A stretch of 64,000 nt of DNA from an uncultured Gemmatimonadales bacterium. GTDB lineage: Bacteria; Gemmatimonadota; Gemmatimonadetes; Gemmatimonadales; GWC2-71-9. The translations under genes and the position numbers were made by a program. The stretch is taken from contig CAVSQW010000002.1 of NCBI GenBank assembly GCA_963730185.1, positions 64,001 through 128,000 on the forward strand, given 5' to 3'. Each line of letters starts with the position of its first letter. Positions within the stretch are counted from its first letter, which is position 1. Of the stretch, positions 15,972 to 32,634 are shown in pieces. The notes below the pieces were generated by a model. That model had not been told where the DNA came from and ran no database searches. It saw only the letters and a list, made by a program, of their open reading frames with translations.

Positions 15972-16967
15972 CTGGCCACCACCCGGTTCACGGTCCTGGC
16001 CGACGAAACCGAGCGCCTCGACCGCTTCCTCGCCGATCAGCTGAGCTTCTCCCGAACCCAGGCCTCGCGGCTCGTGGCCGAGGGGCGGGTCCGGGTCAAC
16101 GACCTCCGGGCCCGGGCCTCGCGGCTGTTGGCGCGGGGTGACACGGTTGACGTCCGGATCGACGACGAGCGTCCGCCGCGGACGCTGGCCCCCCATCCAA
16201 TCCCGCTGAACGTGGTCTACGAAGACGAGTACCTGGCGGTCATCAACAAGCCGGCCGGGCTGGTGGTGCACCCGGCGCCGGGTCATTGGGACGACACCTT
16301 GGTCAACGCCTTGGTGGCCCGGGGGACGTCCCTGTCGGACGGGACCGGCGGCCGGCCGGGGATTGTCCACCGCCTCGATCGCGACACATCGGGGCTGATG
16401 TTGATCGCCAAGACCGACGTCGCCCATCGGAAGCTCGGCGCCGCCATCGCGGCTCGCCGGGTGGAGCGGTGTTATGCGGTGCTGGCCTGGGGGCACCTGC
16501 CGGAGTCGCCCCTCGACGTCAACGCCCCGATCGGCCGCCATTCCTCCGACCGAAAGCGGATGGTGGTGCGGGAGGACGGGCGGACCGCTCGGACCCGGTT
16601 CGAGGTCGTGGCCCGATTTTCGGTGGGGGAGTTGCTTCGGGCCAGGCTGGAGACCGGCCGGACCCACCAGATCCGGGTCCACCTGGCCCACGTGGGCCAC
16701 CCGGTGGTCGGCGACCCCGTGTATGGGGCCGGGGGGGCCCGTCGGATCACCGGGGGGGCCCGGAGTCTGGCGGAACGCCTCGAACGGGCGACGCCCCGCC
16801 AGGCCCTCCACGCGGCCCAGCTCCGGTTCCGCCACCCGATCACGGGGGCGGCCCTGGCCTTCGAGAGCGATTGGCCCGGGGATCTGGCCGAGTCGCTCCG
16901 AATCCTGCAACTTGTTGCAGATCAAGTTGATCCGCCTCATTGGCTGACATATCTTGGGTTCTTCTGA
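15972..16967 (+). CDS. rluD: RluA/RluD family pseudouridine synthase (start codon uncertain, possibly CTG)
   Basis: S4-like N-terminus RLDRFLA; NKPAGLVVHP, HRLDRDTSG, TGRTHQIRVH, QALHA. Confidence 0.92.
   Translation: MATTRFTVLADETERLDRFLADQLSFSRTQASRLVAEGRVRVNDLRARASRLLARGDTVDVRIDDERPPRTLAPHPIPLNVVYEDEYLAVINKPAGLVVHPAPGHWDDTLVNALVARGTSLSDGTGGRPGIVHRLDRDTSGLMLIAKTDVAHRKLGAAIAARRVERCYAVLAWGHLPESPLDVNAPIGRHSSDRKRMVVREDGRTARTRFEVVARFSVGELLRARLETGRTHQIRVHLAHVGHPVVGDPVYGAGGARRITGGARSLAERLERATPRQALHAAQLRFRHPITGAALAFESDWPGDLAESLRILQLVADQVDPPHWLTYLGFF
16905..16955 (+). promoter_or_regulatory. Internal sigma70-like promoter with tandem palindromes, upstream of cheW
   Basis: TTGATC(16927-32)-17 nt-TATCTT(16950-55); palindromes CTGCAAC-TT-GTTGCAG and GATCAA-G-TTGATC. 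Confidence 0.55.
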
Positions 16968-16974
16968 GCGGAGC

Positions 16975-17340
16975 ATGAGCGAGACACCAGCATCCCGGGC
17001 GGTCGTGTGCCAGGCGGGGGGGCAGCGCTTCGCGTTGGCGCTGGAAGACGTGCGCGAAGTTTGCACGGACGTACTGGTGGTCCCGATGCCGGGAGTTGCA
17101 GCTCCGGTCGAGGGTGTCGCGAATGTTCGCGGGACGGTGGTGACCGTGGTGCGCGCCGCCGACCTGCTGGGCGTGACGCCGACCCGATCGGGGCCCTCGC
17201 CGTGGCTGGTCGTTCTCCGATTTCGGGACGGACGAGTGGCCCTCGGCGTCGAGGACATCGAAGATCTGGCGCCGGTCGGGATCGGCTTGAGTCGATTGGC
17301 GGTCGACGCACACCTCGGTCCGCTGTTTGGATCGCGCTAA
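16975..17340 (+). CDS. cheW: CheW-like coupling protein (short, divergent)
   Basis: FALALEDVREV, VPMPG...VEGVANVRGTVVTVV, VALGVEDI; GGAG RBS. Confidence 0.85.
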   Translation: MSETPASRAVVCQAGGQRFALALEDVREVCTDVLVVPMPGVAAPVEGVANVRGTVVTVVRAADLLGVTPTRSGPSPWLVVLRFRDGRVALGVEDIEDLAPVGIGLSRLAVDAHLGPLFGSR

Positions 17341-17352
17341 CTGGAGGCTCTT

Positions 17353-17715
17353 GTGGGGCACACGGTTCTCGTTTGCGACGACGCGATGTTCATGCGGACT
17401 ATGATCGCCGACATCCTCACCCAAGCCGGGTTCGAGGTGGTGGGCGAAGCGGAGTCGGGTGAGCAGGCGCTCGCCCGGTACCGGGAGCTCAAGCCCGATC
17501 TGGTCACCATGGACATCGTGATGCCCAACATGGGCGGAATCGAGGCCGTCCGGGCCATCTGCAAGGAAGATCCGGAGGCCAAGATTCTGATGTGCAGCGC
17601 GATGGGACAGCAGGCCCTGGTGGTGGAGGCCATCCAGGCCGGCGCCAAGGACTTCGTCGTCAAACCCTTCCAGCCTTCCCGCGTTCTGGAGGCGGTTCAG
17701 CGGCTCCTGGGGTGA
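17353..17715 (+). CDS. cheY: Single-domain response regulator CheY (DifD/Bacillus-type)
   Basis: VCDDAMFMR, TMDIVMP phospho-Asp, CSAMGQ, KPF. Confidence 0.95.
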   Translation: MGHTVLVCDDAMFMRTMIADILTQAGFEVVGEAESGEQALARYRELKPDLVTMDIVMPNMGGIEAVRAICKEDPEAKILMCSAMGQQALVVEAIQAGAKDFVVKPFQPSRVLEAVQRLLG

Positions 17716-17722
17716 GCCCGCG

Positions 17723-19330
17723 GTGGATCTGAGCCGCTATACCGCCCTCTTCCTCGCTGACACCCGGGAGCATCTCGACCGGGCCAGCCGGATCTTGCTC
17801 GACTGGGAGCGCGAGCCTGGAACGCTCGAGCCGGTGGCCGAGCTGTTCCGGGCGTTCCACTCGGTCAAAGGCTCGGCGGCCACGATGGAGTACACGGCCC
17901 TGGCCGACCTGGCGCATGCCGCCGAGCACCTGCTCGACGCCGTCCGGAAGGGTGACCTCGGGCCGTCGCGGGCGGTGGTGAGCCTGCTGCTTCGAGCGGT
18001 CGACGTGCTGGAGCGGGGCGCGGAGCTGGTGGTGGCCGGCGAAGCGGTGCCGGACGCGCCGGCGCTGGTGGGGGTCCTCGAGCGGATGGTTGCGTCCGGG
18101 GCGCCGCCGGCGCCCGCCGAGCCCCCGCTGGAGCGCCGGACCCCGACCCGCGTCCCCCGGCCCTCGGCCCGCTTTACCCTGTCCGCGGTCCGGGTCGACC
18201 GGAGCCGGCTGGACGAGCTCCTCCACCGGGCGGCCGAGCTGGTGGTGGCGCGGAATCGGCTGGACGGGCTCGTCGCCAGGAGCAGCGACCCCGAGCTCGA
18301 GGCGGTCGCCGGCCAGGTCGGGACCTTGGCCCGGTCGATGCACGCCGGAGTGCTCCGGGCCCGGCTGGCCCCGGTCGCTGAGCTCTTCGACCGGCTGCCC
18401 CGGGTGGCCCGGGACCTGGGGCAGTCGCTCGATCGGGAGGTGGAGCTCAAGCTTCGGAGCGACGGGATCGAGTTGGATCGCGGGATGCTGGAGGAGTTGC
18501 TCGACCCGCTGGTGCACTTGGTGCGGAACGCGGTCGATCACGGCATCGAGCCCCCCGCCGAGCGGCTGCTCGCGGGCAAGCCGCCCGAGGGGCGGCTTCT
18601 CCTCAGCGCCTCGCGGGAGCGGGAGTTCGTCACCGTGCGTCTAGCCGACGACGGACGGGGCATCGACCGCGACGCGGTCGCCCGGCGGGCCGAAGAGGCC
18701 GGACTTCGGCCGGCCGGCCGGCCGCCGCCCGACGACCACGAGCTCCTCGGGCTGCTGGCTCGGCCCGGGTTCACGCTCCGGCACGAGGTCACCTCGATCT
18801 CGGGACGTGGCGTCGGGATGGACGTGGTGCTGAGCACCGTGCGCAGCCTGGGCGGCCAGGTCGAGGTGAGCTCGGAGCCCGGACAGGGCACCACCTTCAC
18901 GCTGACCCTGCCGCTCACCACCGCGATTCAGCGGGTGCTCCTGGTGGGGGCGGCTGGCGAGCGGTACGCGATCCCCTTTCGGATCGTGGCCGAAGCGGTG
19001 CGGGGGCCCGGGCCGGCGGCGACCGAAACGACCGGGGGGCGGTTTAGCTTTCGGGATCGCTCGTTGCCGATGGTGGACCTGGCCCGCGCGACCGGGCTGA
19101 AGGGAGCGACGGCCGGGCGGGTGCGTCCGATGCTGGTGCTCGAATGGGGGACCCGGCAGGGCGCGCTGGCGGTCGACGCCGTGCTGGGGCAGCTGGACGT
19201 GGTGATCGAGCGGGTGGAGGCGCCGGTCGGCCTGCCCGCCTGGGTGAGCGGTGCGACCATTCTTGCCGACGGGTCGCCCGCACTGGTGCTGGATCCAACC
19301 GCCCTGTTCCAGGCGGAGGCCTCGCGATGA
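17723..19330 (+). CDS. cheA: Chemosensory histidine kinase CheA (Hpt-dimerisation-HATPase-CheW; no P2)
   Basis: FRAFHSVKG, HLVRNAVDHGIE, DDGRG, SGRGVGMDVV, GATILADG. Confidence 0.95.
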   Translation: MDLSRYTALFLADTREHLDRASRILLDWEREPGTLEPVAELFRAFHSVKGSAATMEYTALADLAHAAEHLLDAVRKGDLGPSRAVVSLLLRAVDVLERGAELVVAGEAVPDAPALVGVLERMVASGAPPAPAEPPLERRTPTRVPRPSARFTLSAVRVDRSRLDELLHRAAELVVARNRLDGLVARSSDPELEAVAGQVGTLARSMHAGVLRARLAPVAELFDRLPRVARDLGQSLDREVELKLRSDGIELDRGMLEELLDPLVHLVRNAVDHGIEPPAERLLAGKPPEGRLLLSASREREFVTVRLADDGRGIDRDAVARRAEEAGLRPAGRPPPDDHELLGLLARPGFTLRHEVTSISGRGVGMDVVLSTVRSLGGQVEVSSEPGQGTTFTLTLPLTTAIQRVLLVGAAGERYAIPFRIVAEAVRGPGPAATETTGGRFSFRDRSLPMVDLARATGLKGATAGRVRPMLVLEWGTRQGALAVDAVLGQLDVVIERVEAPVGLPAWVSGATILADGSPALVLDPTALFQAEASR

Positions 19331-19950
19331 TGGATGCTTCGAAGCTGACCGACGTGGAGCGCGACGCGCTGCGCGAGATCGCCAACATCGGGGCCGGGCA
19401 CGCGGCCACGGCCCTGTCGCAGATGACGGGTCGCCGGATCATGATCGACGTGCCCGAGGTCTCGGTCAAGCGGCTGGAGGAGGCCAGCGATCTGATCGGT
19501 CCGCCCGACACGATCATCGCCGCCGTGCTGATGCACATGATGGGCGACATGACCGGCCGCACCCTCCTGGTCCTGCCCGAGGGGAGCGCCCGCGCCCTCT
19601 GCGCCATCCTGCTCCGCAACGCGGCCCAGGACGGTCCCGGGTTCACCGACATGCAGCGCTCCACCGTGATGGAGACCGGCAACATCCTCTGCAGCGCGTA
19701 CCTCAACGCGCTCTCCGACTTCATGGGGATGATGCTGCTCCCGTCGGTGCCGGCCCTGGTGGTCGATCAAGCCGGCGCCGTGCTCACCACGGCCTATCTC
19801 AACTTCGGCCACGCCCGCGATCACGTGATCTGCGTCGAGACCTCGTTCCGGATCGACGGCTCGCCCGAGCAGCTGAGCGGCCAGTTCATCCTGATGCCGG
19901 ACGTCGCGTCGTTGGCGGCGATCTTCGACGCGATCCGTCTCCCCCGGTAG
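19327..19950 (+). CDS. cheC: CheC-family CheY-P phosphatase
   Basis: DALREIANIGAG and STVMETGNIL (two E-x-x-N active-site motifs). Confidence 0.93.
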   Translation: MMDASKLTDVERDALREIANIGAGHAATALSQMTGRRIMIDVPEVSVKRLEEASDLIGPPDTIIAAVLMHMMGDMTGRTLLVLPEGSARALCAILLRNAAQDGPGFTDMQRSTVMETGNILCSAYLNALSDFMGMMLLPSVPALVVDQAGAVLTTAYLNFGHARDHVICVETSFRIDGSPEQLSGQFILMPDVASLAAIFDAIRLPR

Positions 19951-22627: not shown

Positions 22628-23779
22628 GTGGCGATCCAGGGTCCGCTCCGCGAGCTCGGCATCCACGACGTCTTCCAGCTCCTCGATCTGGGCCGGAAGA
22701 CCGGGTTGCTCCGGATCGTGTCCGAACTCCGCCAGAACGAGGGCACGATCTGGTTCCACGAGGCCGCGGTGGTCGGCGCCACCATCCGCTCCAACCCGCA
22801 TCTGCTGGGGCAGCAGCTGCTTCGGGCGGGCAAGGTCCGGAACGAGGACCTGGCCCGGGCTGAGGCGCTCAAGGACGGCGGCGACGGCCGCCGGATCGGC
22901 GAGATGCTGGTGTCGTTCGGCGCGATCACCGCGCGGGAGCTCGCCACCCAGGTCCGGCTCCAGATCGAGGAGGTCGTGTTCACCCTGCTCGGGTGGTCGG
23001 AGGGCCACTTCATCTTCGAGGAGCGGAGCGCCGACGCCATCCCGCGCGAGGCCGACGTCCGGATCTCGGTCGAGTCGCTCCTGCTCGAGGCGGCCCGCCG
23101 GATCGACGAGTGGTCCCGGATCCGCACCCGGATCCCGCACCTCGGCGTGATTCCCCGGCTGGCGCCCTCCCAACAGGAGGAGGCCGGCTCGTTGGTGTTG
23201 ACGCCGTTCGAATGGCGGGTGCTGGCGGCGTCCGACGGCGTGCGCGACGTCCAGGCCCTCGCCGTCACCATGAGCGAGCCGGAGTTCGACGTGGCTCGGG
23301 CCATCTTCGGGCTGGCTTCCGCCGGGGTGGTGATCGTCCGCGACCCGGTGGAGGAGTCGGCGGCGGCGGCCCCGCGGGAGGACGCTGGGCCCCTGTTGGC
23401 GGAAGCCGAGCGGTTGGTGAAGGCCGGGAACTTCGAGGCGGCCCGGAGCATGGCGAGCGCCGCCTTCGACGCCTTCCCGAACGACCCCCGTCCGTATCTT
23501 TTGGTAGGACGAACGTTGATCGCTGAGCAGCGCTTCGACGAGGCGGAAGCGCCGCTTCGGGAGGCGGTCCGGCTCGATCCGGCGTCACCTCGGGCCCTGC
23601 GGCTGCTCTCCTGGTCGCTGCTTGGCACCGGTCGCCTCGGCGAAGCGGTGCACGGATTCGAGGCCTGGCTGGCGCTCCCGTCGCTCGGCCCCGAGGAGGA
23701 ACGGCGGGTCGCGTCGGTCGGCGCGGCCATTCCGGCGGCCCGGCAGTTGGCCGCGTTGCTCAGAGGCTCGCATGACTGA
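22628..23779 (+). CDS. DUF4388 (PatA-N) + degenerate MshEN + TPR protein
   Basis: MAIQGPLRELGIHDVFQLLDLGRKTG, WSEGHFIF, LLLEAARRIDEW; C-terminal TPRs. Confidence 0.85.
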   Translation: MAIQGPLRELGIHDVFQLLDLGRKTGLLRIVSELRQNEGTIWFHEAAVVGATIRSNPHLLGQQLLRAGKVRNEDLARAEALKDGGDGRRIGEMLVSFGAITARELATQVRLQIEEVVFTLLGWSEGHFIFEERSADAIPREADVRISVESLLLEAARRIDEWSRIRTRIPHLGVIPRLAPSQQEEAGSLVLTPFEWRVLAASDGVRDVQALAVTMSEPEFDVARAIFGLASAGVVIVRDPVEESAAAAPREDAGPLLAEAERLVKAGNFEAARSMASAAFDAFPNDPRPYLLVGRTLIAEQRFDEAEAPLREAVRLDPASPRALRLLSWSLLGTGRLGEAVHGFEAWLALPSLGPEEERRVASVGAAIPAARQLAALLRGSHD

Positions 23780-24563
23780 CGACATCGCGACGATGACCGT
23801 GCAGCTGGCGCAGGATCCGACCAGCCTGGTGTTTCTGCCGCTGGCCGAGGCGCTCCGCGGCCGGGGACAGCTGGACGCCGCCCTCACGGTCGCCCTCCGT
23901 GGCCTGAGCCGCTATCCCGAGGTGGCCGACGCCTACGACTTGGTCGCTCGGATCCAGTGCGATCGGGGCGACGGCGACGCCGCCTTCGATGCCTGGACCA
24001 ATGTGCTCCGCCTCGCGCCCGACCATCTGGGCGCGCACAAGGGGCTCGCCTTTCTCTTCTACCGCGGCGGCGAGGTCACCCGGAGTCTCCGCCACCTGAC
24101 CCGGGCGCTCGAGATCGCGCCCGGCGACGCCAGCCTCACCGCCGCGGTCGACCGGATTCGGATCCAGGCCGAGGCCGGCCTCGAGCGGCCCAGCGTGCCG
24201 GACCAGGCGGCGCCGCAGGCGGTCCGCCGGGGGGGCGACCAGGCCACCCTGCTGTTCGATCAGCAGGGGCGGGTGCTCCGGGGCGACGTGGTGCGGCCCG
24301 ACGGCAGCGACGCCAGCGAGGCCGTCGCCGCAGGCCTGGCCGGCGTGAGTCGGGAGGCCGAGCGCACCGCCCGGATGCTCGGCCTGGGCGAATGGCGGGC
24401 CATCGCGGTCGAGGGCGGGCCGGTCAACTACGAGATTCGGAGCCCGTCCGAGGAGACCCTCCTGCTCCTGATGCGGGGGCGCGAGGTGCCGGCCGGTCGG
24501 CTGTCGCGGATCGCCGATCGCGCCGTCGCTGACTCGGTGCGCTGGCTGGAGGAACTGGAATGA
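23772..24563 (+). CDS. TPR + roadblock/LC7-like fusion protein
   Basis: N-terminal TPRs (FLPLAEALR, AHKGLAFLFY); C-terminal LLFDQQGRVL...AAGLAGVSREAERTARMLGLGEW roadblock pattern. Confidence 0.7.
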   Translation: MTDDIATMTVQLAQDPTSLVFLPLAEALRGRGQLDAALTVALRGLSRYPEVADAYDLVARIQCDRGDGDAAFDAWTNVLRLAPDHLGAHKGLAFLFYRGGEVTRSLRHLTRALEIAPGDASLTAAVDRIRIQAEAGLERPSVPDQAAPQAVRRGGDQATLLFDQQGRVLRGDVVRPDGSDASEAVAAGLAGVSREAERTARMLGLGEWRAIAVEGGPVNYEIRSPSEETLLLLMRGREVPAGRLSRIADRAVADSVRWLEELE

Positions 24564-24910
24564 CCTTTCCCGAACAGGCGGTCCTCGATGAGGTCACCCG
24601 GCTGCCGGGAGTCCGGAGCGCGCTCCTGGTCGGGCTCGAGGACGGGATCGTGGTGGCCGAGACCGCGCTCGAGGGAGAGGACACCCGGGCGGCGGCGGCC
24701 CTGGCGGCCCGGCTGGCCCAGCGCCTGGCCGAGCTGCCTCGAACGGTCGGCCATCCCGCCCTCACCATGATCCTGCTTCAGGGCTCGGAGGGACAGCTCT
24801 TCGCTGCCCCGGGTGGCGACGGCTTGCTGCTGGTCGCGGTGGCGGACAACGACGTGAACATCGGCGAGGTGCGGCTCGCCCTGCTCGACGCCGCGGGGCG
24901 GCTCAGCTGA
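24560..24910 (+). CDS. Roadblock/LC7 protein (MglB/MglC-like)
   Basis: LPGVRSALLVGLEDGIVV, AAALAA, LVAVAD..VNIGEVRL. Confidence 0.85.
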   Translation: MTFPEQAVLDEVTRLPGVRSALLVGLEDGIVVAETALEGEDTRAAAALAARLAQRLAELPRTVGHPALTMILLQGSEGQLFAAPGGDGLLLVAVADNDVNIGEVRLALLDAAGRLS

Positions 24911-25371
24911 TGCGAGCCATCGAGCCCTGGGTCGAACGGCCGCTGGCGGGCTTCGTGGAGGAGTCCGGGGCGCGGATCGCGGTCCTGATGACCGGAGCGG
25001 GCCAGGTGGTGGCCCAACACGGCTTCACCCGGTCGCTCGACCTGATGTCGGCCGCGGCGCTCGGCGCCGGCATCGTGGCGTCGACCCGCGAGATGGCTCG
25101 CGAACTGGGTTCGGACGGGTTCGGAGCGATCGTTCACCAGGGCCAGCAGCTGGGCGTGTTTCTCGCCCCGTTCGATCTCCCCGCCGCGTCGTGGATCGGC
25201 CTGGTCGTGTTCGGGCCGGAGACCTCACTCGGGCTGGTGCAGCTCTTCTTCGATCAGATGGTGGACGGGCTGACCCGGGCGGCGCCGCGCGAGGCGCCCG
25301 CGCGCCAGGTCTTGCCCGAGGCCTTCGAAGACGAGCTGAACGCCAGCCTGCGCGCCCTCTTTGGACGGTGA
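24910..25371 (+). CDS. mglB: MglB-type roadblock GAP
   Basis: GQVVAQHG, AALGAGIVASTREMA, HQG, VVF..ETSLGLV; directly upstream of mglA. Confidence 0.8.
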   Translation: MRAIEPWVERPLAGFVEESGARIAVLMTGAGQVVAQHGFTRSLDLMSAAALGAGIVASTREMARELGSDGFGAIVHQGQQLGVFLAPFDLPAASWIGLVVFGPETSLGLVQLFFDQMVDGLTRAAPREAPARQVLPEAFEDELNASLRALFGR

Positions 25372-25374
25372 CCC

Positions 25375-25977
25375 ATGCCGCTCGTCAACTTCACCGCCCG
25401 CGAAATCACCTGCAAGCTGGTCTACTACGGACCGGGCCGCTGCGGCAAGACGACCAATCTCCAGTACATTCATGGCCGGGTGCCGGAGCACCGCCGGGGT
25501 CGGATGGTCTCGCTGGCCACCCAGTCCGATCGCACCCTCTTCTTCGACTTCCTGCCCCTCGAGCTGGGGGTGATCTCCGGGTTCACCACCCGATTCCAGC
25601 TCTACACCGTGCCGGGTCAGGTCTACTACAACGCCACCCGCCGGCTGGTGCTCCAGGGCGCCGACGGGGTGGTGTTCGTGGTCGACAGCCAGGCCCGCCG
25701 GTTCGACGACAACATCGAGAGCTTCCAGAACCTGCAGGAGAATTTCCTGGATCAGGGGGTCGACATCCGCCAGGTGCCGCTGGTGCTCCAGTACAACAAG
25801 CAGGACCTGCCCGCCGATCTCGTCCTCGGTCCCTCCGATCTCGACGAGACCTTCAACTTCCGCTCCGTTCCCAGCCTGCCGGCCGACGCCCTGCACGGCA
25901 CCGGCGTGTTCGAGACGCTCAAGGCGCTGTCCACGCTCGTCCTGCAACGGCTCGCCGCGCGGCCGCCGACGCTGTGA
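25375..25977 (+). CDS. mglA: MglA-family small Ras-like GTPase
   Basis: KLVYYGPGRCGKTTNL, DRTLFFDFLP, LYTVPGQVYY, QYNKQD. Confidence 0.95.
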   Translation: MPLVNFTAREITCKLVYYGPGRCGKTTNLQYIHGRVPEHRRGRMVSLATQSDRTLFFDFLPLELGVISGFTTRFQLYTVPGQVYYNATRRLVLQGADGVVFVVDSQARRFDDNIESFQNLQENFLDQGVDIRQVPLVLQYNKQDLPADLVLGPSDLDETFNFRSVPSLPADALHGTGVFETLKALSTLVLQRLAARPPTL

Positions 25978-27950
25978 CGGACCCGTTCGCTTTGTTCGTC
26001 ACCGATCCGGCCAATGCGGCGGCGGTGGCAGCGGCCCGGACGGTCGCCGATGCGAGCCGTACCCTCTACGGCCCCCTGGTGATGGTGGGAATCCGGGGCG
26101 CCGGGAAGTCGCATCTTCTCCGCGCCGTGCGTGACCGGGCCGCCGCCCAGTCGCCCCCCCGGCGGGCGGAGCTCATCTCGCTCCTTCGGCTCGCCGACGT
26201 GGTGCACGCCCGCGGCTTGGGCGAGGGGGGATCGGCGCTTCGCGACCGGCTGCTCGACGCCGACCTGCTGCTGATCGACGATTTCGAGGCGGTGACCCGC
26301 CATCTGCCGGTGCAGGCCTTCGTCTTCGACCTTCTCGAATCGCGGATCACCAAGGGCCGCGAGGTCGTGGTCGCGAGCGCCCTGCCGGTCGCCGGGCTGG
26401 CCGGTCTCGACGCCCGGCTTCGCCGCCGGCTCGAGGCAGGCACCGTCGTCACGCTCGGGCTTCCCGGCTCCGACGCCAGGCAGGTGATCCTGGACCGGCG
26501 GGTGGCCGAAAGCGGCGTTCGCCTTGCGCCGGCGGTGGTCGAGGCCCTGGCCCACCAGCCGTTCCGGTCGATCAAGGAATACCTGGGCGCGCTCCAGCGG
26601 GTCCTCGCCTTCCAGCAAACGACGCCCGAAGCGCTCTCGGCGGCCGACGCGCTGGCGTTGCTCGGCCTCGAGAGCACCAACGGGCGCCTCGGTCCGGCCG
26701 AGGCCGGACCAGCCCCCGCCGCTGCCGACGCACCCCAGGAGCCGCCCAGCCTCGAGGAAGCGGAGTTCGACGCCTTCCTCTCCGAGGTCGTGGCCAACGT
26801 TTCGCATCAGTTCGACCGGTGGCGGGGCCGGATTCGCGAAGCCATCGCCCACTGGCAGTCGCGGGGCCTCCGGGCCCGTCGGCTGGAGCGGGCCCTGACC
26901 GACGAGATGGGCGGCGACCCGGAGCCGGTGATCAGCGACTTCGGCCGCGACGCCACCGAGCTGGAGCGGCTGGTGGCCGAGGTTCGAGCCATCGCGCCCG
27001 ACCTGGCCGGCGCCGAGGTCCTCCGTGATCCCGATCAGCTCCCGGCCGCCCGCGAGCTGGTGGACGAGGCCCGGCGCCGGCGGGCCCCGCTGTCGGCCCC
27101 GTTGCCGGAGCTCACCCTCGACACCCTCGGCGTGGGCCCCTCCAACCGGCTGGCCGTCGAGGCGGCCCGCGCCCGGGTGGCCGACGCCGGCGGGCAGGAC
27201 AACCCCCTGGTCGTGGTCGGGGCCAGCGGGTTGGGCAAGACCCATCTGCTCCACGGGATCGGTAACGCGCTGATCGAGCGACAGGTCTCACCCATCGCTT
27301 GCCTGAGCGCCCACAGCTTCCTGGGCGAAGTCTCCGCCCTCCGGACCGCGGAGGAGACCGCCGCCTGGCGGACCCGCTATCAGTGGGTGGCCGGCCTCCT
27401 GGTCGACGATCTTCACGTGCTCGCCCACGAGGGCCGCGCCCAGGAGGAGCTGCTCCAGATCTTCGGGGCGCTCGCCGACGGCGGCCGCCCCCTGGTCTTC
27501 GCGTCGGCCCGCCGGCTGAGCGAGCTCGAGGGCTTCGATCCCCGGCTCCTGACCCGGCTCGAGGCGGGCCTGGTGGTGGAGATCCTCCCGCCCGATCGAG
27601 AGGTGCGCCTGACCGTCGTCAAGGCGCTGCTGGCCGGCACTCCCATGGCCGACGACGCCGCGCTGATCGACTACCTCGCCGGCCGCCCGGCCGACTCCAT
27701 CCGGGCGGTGCAGGGGGCGGTGCATCGAGTGCTCGGTGAAGCGCGGGGCCAGCGGGTCACGCCCTCGCCCGCGCTGGCCCGCGAGGTGCTCGAGGTGGTC
27801 TTGTCCAAGGGCACCCGGCCGGGCCGGCGGAGCGCGACCCCGCGAGGGAGCGGGATCCTCTCGCCCGGGATGGGGGTGGTCCGAAGCCGGGAGAAGATGA
27901 TTCAGCGCTGGCCGCACCCGGCCGAGCGGCTGATGGTGGAGCTGCGCTGA
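25974..27950 (+). CDS. Tandem DnaA/Hda-type AAA+ ATPase lacking DnaA domains I and IV
   Basis: Module 1: GIRGAGKSHLL, LLLIDD, LDARLRRRL. Module 2: NPL..GASGLGKTHLL, LLVDD, QEEL, DPRLLTRL, SIRAVQGA. GTG start overlaps the mglA stop. Confidence 0.85.
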   Translation: MTDPFALFVTDPANAAAVAAARTVADASRTLYGPLVMVGIRGAGKSHLLRAVRDRAAAQSPPRRAELISLLRLADVVHARGLGEGGSALRDRLLDADLLLIDDFEAVTRHLPVQAFVFDLLESRITKGREVVVASALPVAGLAGLDARLRRRLEAGTVVTLGLPGSDARQVILDRRVAESGVRLAPAVVEALAHQPFRSIKEYLGALQRVLAFQQTTPEALSAADALALLGLESTNGRLGPAEAGPAPAAADAPQEPPSLEEAEFDAFLSEVVANVSHQFDRWRGRIREAIAHWQSRGLRARRLERALTDEMGGDPEPVISDFGRDATELERLVAEVRAIAPDLAGAEVLRDPDQLPAARELVDEARRRRAPLSAPLPELTLDTLGVGPSNRLAVEAARARVADAGGQDNPLVVVGASGLGKTHLLHGIGNALIERQVSPIACLSAHSFLGEVSALRTAEETAAWRTRYQWVAGLLVDDLHVLAHEGRAQEELLQIFGALADGGRPLVFASARRLSELEGFDPRLLTRLEAGLVVEILPPDREVRLTVVKALLAGTPMADDAALIDYLAGRPADSIRAVQGAVHRVLGEARGQRVTPSPALAREVLEVVLSKGTRPGRRSATPRGSGILSPGMGVVRSREKMIQRWPHPAERLMVELR

Positions 27951-29566
27951 TGGCGATCAAGGGCAGCCTCAAGGAGGCCAGCCTCCCCGACGTGATCCAG
28001 CTGCTCTTCTTCGGGCGGCGGACGGGGTGTCTGGCGCTGGCCGATCGGCAGCGCTTCGGCTCGATCTTCTTCGAGGACGGCTGGATCGCCTACGCGACGA
28101 TCGTGAACCGGCGCGATCGGCTGGGCGACATCCTGCTCCGGGCCGGGACCATCAGCCGGGAGCAGCTCGACCAGGCCCTCGCCATGCAACAGGTCTCGCG
28201 GGGCCGGCGTTTGGGCGAGATCCTGGTCAGCCTGGGCGCCCTGGCGCCGGAAGAGCTCCGCCGGCTGCTCCGCTTTCAGATCGAGGAAGCGGTCTACGCG
28301 CTCTTCTCCTGGTCGACCGGCACCTTCACCTTCGATGCCGGCGTGCGCCCCGAATGGGAGGGCGATCTCGACCGGATCAACCCCGAAAACCTGTTGCTCG
28401 AGGGTGCCCGCCGGGTGGACGAGTGGAGCCTGATCGAGAAGAAGATTCCGTCGTTCGACGCCGTCTTCTCCGTCGACCGGGGCGCGCTGGCCAACCCCGC
28501 GCTCAGCTTCACCGAGGCGCAGCGCCGGATCCTGCCGCTGCTCGACGGCGAGCGCGACACCCGCGAGGTCATCGACGCCTCCGGCCTCTCCGATTTCGAG
28601 GCCGCGCAGGCGCTGTTCGGGCTGATCACCGCGGGGCTGGCCCAGCGGACCGGAACCTCGTCCAAGGCGGCGCCGTCGCGGCTGCTCGAGGCCCAGCTCG
28701 ACGAGCACCGAAACCTGGGCGTGGCGTTCCTCCGAAGCGACATGCTCGACGAGGCCTCCCGCGAGTTCCGCCGGGTCATGGAGCTGCGGCCGTCCGAAGG
28801 AACCTCGCCATTCTATCTGGGCGTCATCGCCGCCCGCCAGGACAACTGGCCCGACGCCGTCACCCTCTTCCGGCAGGCGCTCGACCGGAGCGGCCCCCGC
28901 GGCGCGATCCTTCACAACCTGGCCGTGGCCCTCGAGGCGATCGGCCGGACCGACCAGGCCGACGCCATCGGCGCCGAGGCCGCGAGCCGGCTGCCGGACG
29001 ACCCCAGGATCTTCCTCGACTGGGGGATCCTGGCTCTCGAGCGCGACGAGCCCCAGGTGGCCTGGGCCCGGCTGGATCGCGCCCGCGAGCTCTTCGGAGT
29101 GGCGGCCCCGCCGATCTGGTTCTGGGCTGCCGCGCTGACCCAGGTGGCCCTCGACCAGATCGAATCCGCCGTGAGCCTGGCGCGCGAAGGCGTCACGGCC
29201 TTTCCTCAGCACAGCGTGCTCCGGAACAACTACGCCGTCCTGCTCGAGGCCACCGGTGCCTTTACCGAGGCGCAGGTCCTCCTCGAGGAGATCATCGGCG
29301 ACGAGCCGTCGCAGCCCCAGCCGTTCAAGAACCTGGGCGATCTCTACTACCGGGGCGGCCGCTACGAGGACGCCGCCCGGGTTTACGAGCGGGCGGCCAC
29401 GATCGCCCCCGAGCTGGGCGACGATCTCTTCTTCAAACTCGGGAACCTCGCCTTCCGGGGGCGGGAAGCGTCCCGGGCCCGCGAGTTCTGGGAGCGGGCC
29501 CTGGCGCTCAACCCGGGGCACCAGCTGGCCCGGGCCAACCTCGAGCTCTTGCCGGTGTCCGCATGA
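27950..29566 (+). CDS. DUF4388 (PatA-N) + MshEN c-di-GMP-binding motif + TPR protein
   Basis: MAIKGSLKEASLPDVIQLL; RLGDILLRAGTISREQLDQALAMQ-x6-RLGEILVSLGALAPEELRRLLRFQ; C-terminal TPRs. Confidence 0.87.
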   Translation: MAIKGSLKEASLPDVIQLLFFGRRTGCLALADRQRFGSIFFEDGWIAYATIVNRRDRLGDILLRAGTISREQLDQALAMQQVSRGRRLGEILVSLGALAPEELRRLLRFQIEEAVYALFSWSTGTFTFDAGVRPEWEGDLDRINPENLLLEGARRVDEWSLIEKKIPSFDAVFSVDRGALANPALSFTEAQRRILPLLDGERDTREVIDASGLSDFEAAQALFGLITAGLAQRTGTSSKAAPSRLLEAQLDEHRNLGVAFLRSDMLDEASREFRRVMELRPSEGTSPFYLGVIAARQDNWPDAVTLFRQALDRSGPRGAILHNLAVALEAIGRTDQADAIGAEAASRLPDDPRIFLDWGILALERDEPQVAWARLDRARELFGVAAPPIWFWAAALTQVALDQIESAVSLAREGVTAFPQHSVLRNNYAVLLEATGAFTEAQVLLEEIIGDEPSQPQPFKNLGDLYYRGGRYEDAARVYERAATIAPELGDDLFFKLGNLAFRGREASRAREFWERALALNPGHQLARANLELLPVSA

Positions 29567-30366
29567 GCCTCGTCGACCATCCCGCCTTCGGTCGGGTGAC
29601 CGAGCACCTCGAGCGGCTGGGCGCCGGGGCGTTCGTGCTGTACAAGACGCCCTGCCTGGAGCGGCGGCTCGCCTCCCGGATCCGGGCCCGCCGCCAGCAC
29701 GGCCTGGCCGAGTACGCCGCCCTGCTCGACAGCGATGCCGGTGAGCGCGACCGGCTGGTGAGGGCGCTCTCGATCGGCGTCACCAGCTTCTTCCGGAATC
29801 CGACGGCGTGGCGCCGGCTCGCCGAGCTGCTCGAGGAGCGGAAGCCGGCGGGCGGGCTCCGAGGCTGGAGCGCCGGCTGCGCGAGCGGCGAGGAGGCCTG
29901 GTCGCTGGCCATGGTCCTCTCCGATCGGGCCCTCACCGGGTCAGGCGACCCGACCGCCTTCCGGGTCGACGCCACCGATCTCGACCTGGCCGGGCTGGCC
30001 CTCGGTCGGATGGGCGAGTATCCCGGGCAGGTAACCGCGCCCCTTCGGCTGGCCGGCGACCTTCGCCACGGTCGGCTGGTGGGTGACCGGTTCCTGGTGG
30101 AGCCGGCGCTCCGGGGGCGAGTCCACTTCCGCCGAGACGATCTCACCGAGTCGCGGGTGCGCGGGCCGTACGACGTGGTCACCTGCCGGAACGTGCTCAT
30201 CTACTTTGGCGACGAGGGGCAGTCGCGGGCCTTGGCCGCGCTGGTTCGCTCCCTCGCGCCGGGCGGCCTCCTGATGCTCGGCCGGGCCGAGCTCGCCGCC
30301 CGATCGGTTGCCGAGGAGCTGGAGATCGTCGACTCGCGGGAACGGATCTACCGGAGGGTCGAATGA
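29563..30366 (+). CDS. cheR: CheR-type protein-glutamate methyltransferase
   Basis: GVTSFFRN, WSAGCASGEEAWSLAM, ATDLD, CRNVLIYF. Confidence 0.93.
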   Translation: MSLVDHPAFGRVTEHLERLGAGAFVLYKTPCLERRLASRIRARRQHGLAEYAALLDSDAGERDRLVRALSIGVTSFFRNPTAWRRLAELLEERKPAGGLRGWSAGCASGEEAWSLAMVLSDRALTGSGDPTAFRVDATDLDLAGLALGRMGEYPGQVTAPLRLAGDLRHGRLVGDRFLVEPALRGRVHFRRDDLTESRVRGPYDVVTCRNVLIYFGDEGQSRALAALVRSLAPGGLLMLGRAELAARSVAEELEIVDSRERIYRRVE

Positions 30367-30851
30367 CGGGGCTCCGGGTCGTCGTCCGGGTGAGCGGCCT
30401 GATCGTGGCCGAGGCGCCGGCGACGCTCGTGGCGCTCGCCCTCGGGAGCTGCGTCGCGATCGCCCTCTACGATCCCCAGGCCAAGATCGGCGGCATGGCC
30501 CACGTGCTCCTGCCCTCGGCGGCGATGGGACGGGACCAGGGACAACCTGGCCGCTTCGCCCAGACCGCGGTGCCCACCCTCCTGGAACGGCTGATTGCCC
30601 GGGGTGCGCGGGCGCCGGCCATCACCGCCCGGCTGGTCGGCGGGGCCAGCATGTTCACCTCGCTGGCCCCTCCGGGCACCATCCAAATGGGCGACCGGAA
30701 CGTGGTGGCGGCCCGCGAGGCGCTCCACCGCAACGGCATCCGCCTGGTCGGTGAAGCGGTCGGCGGCGACTTCGGCCGGACGGCCGAGTTCGACGTGGAG
30801 ACCGGCCGGATCCGGGTCGCCTCGTACCTCCGCGGCGAGCAGCTGCTGTGA
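30363..30851 (+). CDS. cheD: CheD chemoreceptor glutamine deamidase
   Basis: LGSCVAIALYD, GGMAHVLLP, GGASMF, MGDRN, VGG..GR. Confidence 0.93.
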   Translation: MTGLRVVVRVSGLIVAEAPATLVALALGSCVAIALYDPQAKIGGMAHVLLPSAAMGRDQGQPGRFAQTAVPTLLERLIARGARAPAITARLVGGASMFTSLAPPGTIQMGDRNVVAAREALHRNGIRLVGEAVGGDFGRTAEFDVETGRIRVASYLRGEQLL

Positions 30852-31726
30852 CCGACGTCCGACGGACGGCCTGGCTGGCCGCGCTGGTCGAGGAGCTCGA
30901 CGCGATCGACCGCGAGCTCGAGGCTGGCGCCGCCGATCGGGCTCGTCTCAAGACCCGGATCGTCGCCACCTTCCGCCAAGTGGAGGGGAGCCTGTCGGAG
31001 CTCGGCGGCCTCAAGGACCGGATCAAAGGGCAGGTGGACCGCTTCAAGCAGCTCGCCACCAGCGGCCCCGGCCACCCCGACCCGGCCGAGGCGGGGCCGA
31101 TGCCGGTGCGGGCCGACCACCTCGGCGCCTCGACCTTCATCGAGAAGGGCTGGAGCCTGATCTCGGCGGGCGACCCCGCTGGTGCGATCGACGCGCTCCA
31201 CCGAGCGCTCGAGCTCGCCCCCGACGACGTCCACGCGAAGGCCCTCGTTGGATGGGCCCAGATGCTCGGGGAGCACTATGACGACGCCCTGGTGACCTTC
31301 TCCGAGGTGCTGGCCCGCGAGCCCGCCCACGCGCTGGCCCGGGTGAACGTGGGCTTCATCTGCCTCAAGAAGCGAATCTTCGGCGAGGCGATCGAGCACC
31401 TCTCCCGGGTCATCCGGCTCGACAACGACCGGAAGGCCACGCTGTACGCCCACTACTATCTGGGACTCGTCTACCTCGAGCGGGCGATGTACCTCGACGC
31501 CGAGACCTTTCTCACCAAGGCCATCGCGCTGGGGCCGAATCTGATCGAGGCGTACTACGACTTGGGGCGGGCCCGCTGGTTCGCGGGCGATCAGGAAGGG
31601 GCCCGCGCCACCTGGCGCAAAGGGGCCAAGGCCAACAAATATGCTCCGTGGGCCAAGCGTTGCCAGGAACTCCTCGAAGCCGTCGAGCGCGGCGAGTCGG
31701 TGCCGCCCTCCTCGCCGGCGGCCTGA
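30848..31726 (+). CDS. Coiled-coil + TPR protein
   Basis: Heptad-rich N-terminus; ARVNVG, AHYYLGLVY, AYYDLG TPRs. Confidence 0.85.
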   Translation: MTDVRRTAWLAALVEELDAIDRELEAGAADRARLKTRIVATFRQVEGSLSELGGLKDRIKGQVDRFKQLATSGPGHPDPAEAGPMPVRADHLGASTFIEKGWSLISAGDPAGAIDALHRALELAPDDVHAKALVGWAQMLGEHYDDALVTFSEVLAREPAHALARVNVGFICLKKRIFGEAIEHLSRVIRLDNDRKATLYAHYYLGLVYLERAMYLDAETFLTKAIALGPNLIEAYYDLGRARWFAGDQEGARATWRKGAKANKYAPWAKRCQELLEAVERGESVPPSSPAA

Positions 31727-32634
31727 TCGTCGCCGGGCCCGTCCGGGCCCAGGCGCAGCGTGAGATCGTCCGGGTAGGGCAGGCGACCGCGCTGGCGGCT
31801 CCGTCCGATCTCGATCTGGCGGTGGCCCTGGCCGAGCGAGCCGACCAGCCGGCCGAGTATTACGGCCTGGGACGGCGGTCGATCGGCCCCGTCGCGATCG
31901 CCGTGGTGCGGGGCCGGGGCGGGTTCGACTCGGTCTCGCGGGGCCGGATCCCGTCGTGGGGCGCGGGGCTCGCCCTGCCGGCCGCCCGCTTCATCGCGAT
32001 CCGGGCCGATGCCGGCGATCCGTTCGACATCCTCCGGCACGAGCTGGCCCATCTGGCCCTCCGGCAGGCGGTCAAGGGTCGCGTCCCGCTCTGGTTCGAC
32101 GAGGGGTACGCGGCCGTGTCCGCGGGCGAGTTCGGGCGGCTCGAGTCGTTGGAGCTCAACCTCAGCCTGGCGCTGGGGCGGGTGCCGTCGCTGGATGCGC
32201 TGGATGCCGGGTTACGAGGCGCGGAGGCCACCGCCACCACCGCCTATGCCCTGGCGGCTACGGCGGTGCTGGATCTGGCCCGGCGCAATCCCACTGGGAC
32301 CCTCACCCCCCTCCTTGCCCGGCTAGGCGCGGCGGTGCCGTTCGACTCGGCGGTCGTGCTCACGACCGGGCTCCGGATCGAAGGATTCGAGGAGGCCTGG
32401 CAGAAGGACGTCAAACGGCGCTACAGTCTTGGCCTCTGGCTCCTGGGTGGGGGGCTCTGGGCGGTGGCGGGTCTCCTGGTGGTGATCGCCGCGCGGATGC
32501 GGCGGCGGCGGGAGGCGCCCCGCCGGGCGGCGCTGGACGCCGGCTGGGTCGTTCCGCCGGGAGAGGACGAGCCGGCTGCGCAGCTTGAAACGCCAGTGGC
32601 ACGGCCGCTTGACCGTGACCGGCCACCGTCATAG
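31648..32634 (+). CDS. Membrane-anchored peptidase MA-like (gluzincin) protein; start uncertain
   Basis: Signal-like N-terminus, HELAH...PLWFDEG, C-terminal TM followed by RRRR. Confidence 0.7.
   Translation: MGQALPGTPRSRRARRVGAALLAGGLIVAGPVRAQAQREIVRVGQATALAAPSDLDLAVALAERADQPAEYYGLGRRSIGPVAIAVVRGRGGFDSVSRGRIPSWGAGLALPAARFIAIRADAGDPFDILRHELAHLALRQAVKGRVPLWFDEGYAAVSAGEFGRLESLELNLSLALGRVPSLDALDAGLRGAEATATTAYALAATAVLDLARRNPTGTLTPLLARLGAAVPFDSAVVLTTGLRIEGFEEAWQKDVKRRYSLGLWLLGGGLWAVAGLLVVIAARMRRRREAPRRAALDAGWVVPPGEDEPAAQLETPVARPLDRDRPPS

Follow-up and report, generated by a model that had tools for sequence, protein, structure and literature searches.

A tandem DnaA-like protein of Gemmatimonadota probably docks by its C-terminal tail onto the PATAN-TPR product of the next gene

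We analyzed a stretch of 64,000 nucleotides (nt), hereafter called the window, from an uncultured Gemmatimonadales bacterium (GenBank assembly GCA_963730185.1, contig CAVSQW010000002.1, positions 64,001 to 128,000), in which a che–mgl operon carries a gene for a protein with two DnaA-like ATPase modules in tandem (25974..27950, plus strand, as are all window genes given below). In our reading, to which we assign a probability of roughly 0.55, this tandem protein would serve in signalling, as an adaptor anchored by its tail and equipped with an optional ATP switch that derives from DnaA and has a single site; it would not be a replication protein, and would likely act in the control of pili or polarity. 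The constant partner of the tandem gene is the PATAN-MshEN-TPR gene directly downstream, not mglA, and complex modelling indicates that the tandem protein probably docks by its last 25 residues onto the product of that gene. Every part of the tandem protein except this tail has been lost in some relative.

Identification of the Tandem DnaA-Like Protein

The tandem gene begins with a GTG codon, at a start position common to its genus relatives, and overlaps the stop codon of mglA by 4 nt. Its product of 658 amino acids (aa) comprises module 1 (DnaA domain III, aa 3–231, 25980..26666), a disordered linker (aa 237–264, 26682..26765), a conserved helical domain that starts with an EFxxFL helix (aa 263–369, 26760..27080), module 2 (DnaA domain III, aa 375–612, 27096..27809), and a C-terminal tail with the consensus EK.vw.WP....Rl.EE (aa 634–658, 27873..27947). 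The Walker A (26088 and 27219), Walker B (26268 and 27396), Box VII (26415 and 27543), and sensor-II (26565 and 27693) motifs and the tail motif (27888) were all located where a first-pass annotation, made from the sequence alone, had placed them. That annotation had described two DnaA domain III-like modules without domain I or IV and had named a canonical dnaA elsewhere in the genome as a check, and both points were confirmed. Pfam Bac_DnaA (PF00308) matched the tandem protein twice (111.5 and 76.7 bits, cut-off 23), and the single match to Bac_DnaA_C in the whole genome fell on a canonical dnaA with a full N-terminal part on another contig (G000:C9), with none on the tandem protein. These two genes gave the only PF00308 matches in the genome, which is 82% complete. 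No Pfam family scored above its cut-off for the helical domain, the tail or the micro-proteins described below, and their Atlas matches were unnamed clusters only.

The two modules share 32% protein identity and no DNA match longer than 35 nt, and two modules were present in 120 of the 120 homologues listed. An assembly duplication was rejected on these grounds. Judged by the low identity of the modules, the duplication is old. The AlphaFold model of the window protein (40 sequences; mean predicted local distance difference test score, pLDDT, 88.6; predicted template modelling score, pTM, 0.51) contained two confident AAA+ modules, the disordered stretch at 237–264 (pLDDT <50), the helical domain, and a short ordered tail. 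The matches in fold searches were mostly AAA+ proteins, and the helical domain was folded only within the longer chain. The Pfam and structure matches are those of the initiator clade, and the earlier description of a repurposed ATPase of that clade is supported.

Distribution of the Tandem Gene and Its Constant Partner

The search set consisted of 200 genomes of the phylum and the window's own genome. A second DnaA-like gene was found in 96 of the 97 genomes of family f1, in 27/38 of f2, 3/3 of f3, 4/4 of f4, 1/1 of f5, and 2/24 of f7, and in 3/3 each of f8, f11, and f12; the query used, the tandem protein, found none in the f6, f9, and f10 genomes of the same set. These tallies, and those given below for FlhA, for the partner and motifs in f2, and for MglA in f11/f12, include four genomes marked as unpublished (G055, G095, G155, and G180; locus L063 is from G095), and no conclusion hinges on them. 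From these loci, 52, not all, were fetched for synteny. Before the motif counts we excluded L063 (split match), L064 (contig end), and L019 (frameshift); L016, with its frameshifted tail, was left out of the tree and the tail table, and L048, with masked bases, out of the full-length alignment. The frameshifts in L016 (near the tail) and L019 (after module 1) may be sequencing errors. Named homologues and Atlas clusters of the tandem protein's length were from Gemmatimonadota; the matches listed in the outgroup alignment were canonical dnaA-type loci, so the range outside the phylum cannot be read from it, and a single-protein scan of genome contigs gave no relatives. A flagellar role was rejected as the reason for conservation, FlhA being present in 21 of the 97 f1 genomes and the tandem gene in 96.

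Directly downstream of the tandem or single-module gene, a PATAN-TPR gene, or a TPR-only homologue in f11/f12, was present in 52 of 52 loci. In the window this gene (27950..29566) starts with a 1-nt overlap with the tandem gene stop, and its product has a PATAN domain (DUF4388), with an inserted double MshEN-like motif for cyclic di-GMP (c-di-GMP) at aa 57–110, and TPR repeats at about aa 250–538. The MshE-related motif match scored 65.2 bits (cut-off 38), and from it we infer a c-di-GMP input to the partner.

The upstream neighbor is less constant. Of the 51 assessable loci, 44 had mglA immediately upstream, and 19 of these 44 shared the 4-nt overlap; the other seven were two f7 loci, which have also lost the Che core, and five f11/f12 loci. 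Six f11/f12 genomes gave no MglA match at E 1e-30, and at least five of the six have a single-module form with the tail and the TPR partner. The translational coupling to mglA claimed earlier does exist as an overlap, but it is nothing special, because the operon is equally tight throughout: each of the 13 junctions that separate cheY from the TPR gene at 30848 falls in the range −8 to +7 nt. The first-pass annotation had suggested an effector of MglA; in the direct form of this reading, MglA-GTP would bind the tandem protein and control it. The predominance of mglA as upstream neighbor and the shared overlap are consistent with this, but the tandem gene is retained without an adjacent mglA in the seven loci above, the micro-form described below in four of eight, and the downstream TPR gene is always present. 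Together with the f11/f12 genomes and the uniform junctions, this makes the effector reading unlikely.

Natural Deletions, Micro-Proteins, and Fusions

Single-module forms accounted for 9 of the 52 loci, and all of them still end in the tail. Eleven f2 genomes showed canonical dnaA only, and the TPR partner is present in eight of these. In all eight, an open reading frame (ORF) of 60–73 aa stands at the place of the tandem gene and consists of the EFxxFL helix and the tail, with both ATPase modules absent. This micro-ORF overlaps or abuts the partner start in 7/8 loci (L147–L154), and the partner is directly downstream in 8/8; an example is L148:7747-7926, on the minus strand, directly upstream of a PATAN-TPR gene. 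There was no adjacent mglA in 4/8 of these loci and no CheA core in 2/8. All six micro-proteins that we looked up are called as genes in public collections, as unnamed hypothetical proteins. A search with a profile at E ≤0.01 yielded 1074 short proteins; the 120 listed were all 60–77 aa long and contained both motifs, and the unlisted ones may include fragments. In addition, the helix and tail occur fused to the TPR part of the TPR-Roadblock protein (23772..24563 in the window), in place of the ATPase modules, in P0320, P0340, and P0346 among the cluster representatives searched; these three clusters have 1, 6, and 6 members. Across f2, the partner TPR and the helix/tail motifs were found in the same 35 of 38 genomes and were both absent from the same three; the helix/tail profile did not recover the genus of the window and lacks the strength to score families other than f2.

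In L147–L151, L153, and L154, a clade without ATPase modules, the PATAN domain of the partner has cleanly lost its MshEN-like insert, and the last TPR pair is gone as well. This co-loss of insert and modules in 7/8 micro-form loci was not counted as support, because it represents one clade and one event. In the remaining locus, a short tandem repeat with a five-codon unit lies between the micro-ORF and the partner gene (L152:11985-12092).

Predicted Contact Between the Tail and the TPR Partner

The short tail, which the first-pass annotation had noted in passing, is the only part kept in all full, single-module, and micro-forms examined, save one frameshifted copy. Its conservation extends from the tandem forms to the single-module forms of the outgroup, and 110 of 120 homologues fit a strict pattern. 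A contact between the tail and the TPR repeats is to be expected, because the outgroup partners are TPR-only. The whole 658-aa chain was modelled with partner residues 240–538, ATP, and Mg in three runs, with three controls. The complex scored 0.73 in three runs and the best of the three controls 0.00, the contacts agreed to at least 61%, and the partner pLDDT was at least 83; the confident interface on the 658-aa chain consisted of aa 634–658 only. In the calibration of this model, 116 of 157 solved pairs attained the mark, as did 2 of 215 mismatched ones; these figures apply only roughly here, and the pass supports the predicted binding. The 50 predicted interface residues are better conserved than the 231 others (0.65 vs. 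0.58, p 0.027, 44 sequences), as are the polar ones among them (0.70 vs. 0.55, p 0.002). On the partner side, positions Asn323, 357, 426, 427, and 461 are Asn in all assessable outgroup partners.

Conservation of the Two Modules

Which of the two faces of DnaA is the nucleotide side is established. In the following, residues are numbered as in Bacillus subtilis DnaA, and counts refer to the 120 listed homologues, all with two modules. The assignment of essential interface residues to the two faces follows the order in the legend of Fig EV3 (PMC6669920), the part of that source on which we rely. Module 1 has kept the nucleotide face (K157 120/120, D248 119/120, R313 119/120, F218 117/120, and G317 119/120); R206 is not among the four commonest residues at its position, and H231 is absent. 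Module 2 has kept the Arg-finger face (R202 114/120, R206 110/120, R264 120/120, and L269 118/120) and has mostly lost sensor I and the nucleotide-side residues D248 (12/120) and F218 (4/120). The 41 tandem sequences derived from the loci have the same face pattern, with the module 2 lid missing in 10/41 and its Walker A Lys in 3/41. Judged by these residues, module 1 is family-wide an intact ATP site and module 2 a degenerate one with an Arg-finger face, and the faces complement each other as expected if a single chain formed one step of a DnaA filament. The decay of the module 1 nucleotide face tracks that of the module 2 Arg face (rho 0.66, n = 41 related sequences, inflated by kinship), and three of four in-class single-module forms have a damaged site. 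For a family-typical member (141 sequences), the model reached a pTM of 0.75 despite a 33-residue disordered linker, which suggests that the modules pack rigidly in that protein.

The window copy differs from this pattern. In its module 1, sensor I is Ala, sensor II is Lys, and the Phe218 position is Ala; sensor I of its module 2 is Ala as well. The ASA and SIK readings of the first-pass annotation therefore hold for module 1 of the window, but they are not family traits (sensor-I Asp 119/120 and sensor-II Arg 119/120). A sensor-I Asp, a sensor-II Arg, and an Arg finger are combined in module 1 of most family members and in neither module of the window copy. All four sequences examined from the window genus have Lys at sensor II of module 1 and lack its sensor-I Asp, and in a quick tree the stem of this genus is 0.81 for module 1 and 0.33 for module 2. 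The asymmetry claimed earlier is thus real, but on this sequence comparison it is a genus-specific decay of module 1, and the asymmetry of the family is opposite in direction. Because module 1 has decayed in this genus, the protein here probably hydrolyses ATP slowly or not at all and serves mainly as a scaffold. In the same tree, the base of which has no resolution for module 1 and the single-module forms, module 2 forms one clade (support 99) and canonical DnaA another (85), and Escherichia coli Hda is far from all of them (branch 2.8).

These faces also bear on the Hda-like regulator proposed in the first-pass annotation, in which module 2 would offer its Arg-finger face to canonical DnaA-ATP and thereby link replication initiation to polarity signalling. 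That face is conserved as well as that of DnaA itself, and no other PF00308 gene that could be hda was found in the genome, 82% complete as it is. Its conservation is, however, already explained by the conserved ATP face of module 1, together with which it decays. The features that define Hda include an N-terminal clamp-binding motif of the QLSLF type (PMC5397184, accessible part), and among 169 sequences we found a single clamp-like string, which was internal. The tandem protein scored 121 against the Hda model TIGR03420 (cut-off 194.8) and 39 and 32.6 against the HdaA models (cut-offs 297 and 300). Both modules are deleted in eight genomes, and the query used found no second DnaA-like match in f6, f9, f10, and most of f7. 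As the clamp motif is missing and the modules are dispensable, an Hda-like role is unlikely.

The accessible parts of PMC10721633 and bioRxiv 2022.03.18.484894 identify base-capturing residues in the origin structure of B. subtilis, and PMC10721633 describes a bipartite pocket made up of the positions listed next. In module 2, the base-capture positions are largely kept (R202 114, E228 120, I/V190 108, I/L193 113, and K222 105 of 120), and module 1 is acidic at 183 (112/120) and 187 (118/120), N187 being replaced by Glu or Asp. The single-stranded DNA-binding residues I190, K222, and T225 are retained in module 2 of most homologues and not in the window copy, where Ser at 190 and Glu at 222 mark two lost base-capture residues. 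Because module 2 keeps base-capture residues in most homologues, the earlier statement that the protein has no DNA-binding domain is valid for double-stranded DNA only. It is conceivable, if improbable, that a duplicated DnaA engine has been frozen as a filament step within one chain that retains exactly one ATP site and a single, remodelled pocket for base capture. Tail-clipped to the c-di-GMP-reading PATAN-TPR protein, it would sense single-stranded DNA or a dinucleotide messenger and steer the pilus or polarity machinery; if so, origin-melting chemistry would have been reused as a signalling receptor. The plainer proposal, that the junction of module 2 with module 1 keeps a pocket like that for the DnaA-trio and signals the presence of single-stranded DNA or of a dinucleotide to the partner, would account for the kept positions and the acidic residues of module 1, but N187 is Glu or Asp, the pocket residues also serve the protein interface, and the window copy has lost two of them, which leaves it doubtful. 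Equally doubtful is an ATP-dependent filament or ring scaffold, in which head-to-tail tandem units would display many tails and cluster the PATAN-TPR partner at the pole; module 1 does keep R260, R264, and L269, and module 2 Walker A, Walker B, and R313, in most homologues, but module 1 is without R206 and H231, and some of the 41 locus-derived sequences have lost the module 2 lid or its Walker A Lys.

Proposed Mechanism

The adaptor reading can be set out in four steps. First, as predicted by the complex model and backed by conservation and the natural deletions, aa 634–658 would occupy the groove formed by the TPR repeats of the PATAN-MshEN-TPR protein, with which the tandem protein is co-translated. 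Second, the EFxxFL helix, which is retained in the micro-proteins, may be a second docking or oligomerisation element. Third, the complementary conservation suggests that the modules would fold back on each other like one DnaA filament step, module 1 holding ATP and module 2 supplying the Arg finger; since the outer faces have drifted, the result would be a self-contained switch with one main site, and not a filament. Fourth, by analogy only, the nucleotide state would determine what is delivered by the adaptor to the PATAN protein. That protein would in addition sense c-di-GMP and, jointly with MglAB and the Che core, would act on the machinery of type IV pili or of polarity.

Several points weigh against this proposal. 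The conservation test on the interface residues is weakened by non-independent columns and by the use of the same alignment as the complex model. Conserved Asn at groove positions is a general trait of TPRs, whose grooves accept many peptides, and the model may have passed through its likeness to solved TPR–peptide complexes. The micro-forms belong to one clade of seven plus one separate row and so represent only one or two evolutionary events. Module 1 retains R264 in 116/120 and module 2 the Walker A Lys in 118/120, which permits head-to-tail oligomers. The family-typical model differs from the window model in both protein and alignment depth, and the meeting faces are not visible in it; the pTM of the window protein gives no support for a fixed contact between modules 1 and 2 in the window copy. 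Finally, a pilus output is suggested by analogy only, from cyanobacterial PATAN proteins and Myxococcus, not from this phylum.

Operon and Genome Setting

The operon begins with cheW, cheY, cheA, and cheC (16954..19950), followed by a large TPR gene (19955-22627), a second PATAN-TPR gene (22628-23779), the TPR-Roadblock gene mentioned above, two Roadblock/LC7 genes (24560-24910 and 24910-25371, the latter mglB-like), and the small GTPase gene mglA (25375..25977). Downstream of the tandem gene and its partner lie cheR, cheD, a coiled-coil-TPR gene, and a peptidase-MA-like gene with an uncertain start (29563..32634). The operon mglA is strongly diverged in L013 and genus g11, where the tandem gene and the partner are intact. 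The window (30363-30851) and L005–L007 belong to a genus without the second CheY-like gene that most relatives have between cheD and the TPR gene. The peptidase-MA-like gene (31648-32634 in the window) remains downstream of the tandem/partner pair where che and mgl are absent (L039, L043, L048, and L050, including one outgroup locus).

Elsewhere in the genome there are a second mglBA pair (G000:C15:298545-299675), a second cheA just upstream of the window (G000:C2:59521-61260, ∼14 kb from flhA), two chemoreceptor matches, and several PilB/PilT-type ATPases. At G000:C14:58411-59561, a PilB/PilT-type secretion ATPase gene is in several short pieces in different frames, as a result of either a broken gene or a sequencing error.

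Annotation and Significance

The tandem family is conserved and apparently undescribed. We found no paper that describes the protein in its title or opening abstract, subscription papers being outside the search. PMC4316618 lists MglA proteins of Gemmatimonadetes, and its Table S2 gives the neighborhood 'PATAN>MglA>-PATAN>' for Gemmatimonas aurantiaca (no legend for the dash was found in the parts accessible), from which it appears that cultured Gemmatimonas carries the locus. Its main text and the three supplementary files searched do not contain the word 'DnaA', one further file being unsearchable, and the accessible part of PMC9862903 makes no mention of DnaA. Throughout the phylum the family is mis-annotated: its database labels are chromosomal replication initiator or DnaA/Hda family.

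What is new here is the constant TPR partner with its predicted tail contact, the module-less micro-proteins, and the family-wide division of the faces between the two modules. ATPases of the DnaA clade are known from replication, helicase loading, and transposition. Here, signalling seems to have taken over a replication engine as an optional switch, and the tandem family would be a case of transfer of the initiator's engine into signal transduction. The protein would also provide a natural, soluble, single-chain DnaA dimer for the study of how an Arg finger fires one ATP site, and the natural deletion series (tandem, single module, TPR fusion, and 60-aa micro-protein) points to the essential interface.

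Comparison With Known Systems

Both modules share their fold and motifs with domain III of DnaA (B. subtilis 8BV3/8BTG, Thermotoga maritima 2Z4R, and Aquifex aeolicus 1L8Q/2HCB/3R8F). The likeness is close (phmmer E 2e-30; for the family-typical model, Z 31.8 and a root-mean-square deviation (rmsd) of 1.5 over 235 residues), and the cis and trans interface residues of DnaA are divided between the two modules. In contrast to DnaA, the tandem protein lacks domains I, II, and IV, has two modules per chain, of which module 1 begins at residue 3, and adds a helical domain and a conserved tail in a che–mgl operon; its score against the DnaA equivalog TIGR00362 was 279.9 (cut-off 343.9). With Hda/HdaA it shares a DnaA-like AAA+ core without domain IV and a conserved Arg finger of the kind offered to a DnaA-type ATP site (Box VII Arg, 120/120 in module 2 and 116/120 in module 1). 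It differs from them in lacking the clamp-binding motif, in having two modules, and in lying far nearer to DnaA than it does to E. coli Hda, and the ATP site that it serves is probably that of its own module 1. By membership in these sequence models, the tandem protein is neither DnaA nor Hda.

Type II tandem AAA+ proteins (p97/Cdc48 and Rix7) likewise have two AAA+ modules per chain. They belong to the classical clade, whereas the tandem protein, with Bac_DnaA as its best family, belongs to the initiator clade, and whole-chain matches were poor, with template modelling (TM) scores <0.31 and an rmsd of about 18–24 Å, the domain arrangement of the window model being uncertain. The closest parallel to the setting is found in MglA/MglB and TPR/PATAN systems (SgmX-FrzS-SopA of Myxococcus xanthus and cyanobacterial PATAN proteins), where a small GTPase, Roadblock proteins, TPR scaffolds, and PATAN outputs form one module, as they do here (accessible parts of PMC11580455, bioRxiv 2021.06.11.447907, and PMC4316618). 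In those parts, TPR scaffolds of MglA are described in Myxococcus (PMC11580455), and PATAN domains are reported to bind PilB1 and PilC in Synechocystis (bioRxiv 2021.06.11.447907). A DnaA-type ATPase or a tail adaptor does not figure in these accounts as far as they were accessible; in the window, the parts of the module are encoded together with a CheA/CheC/CheD/CheR core.

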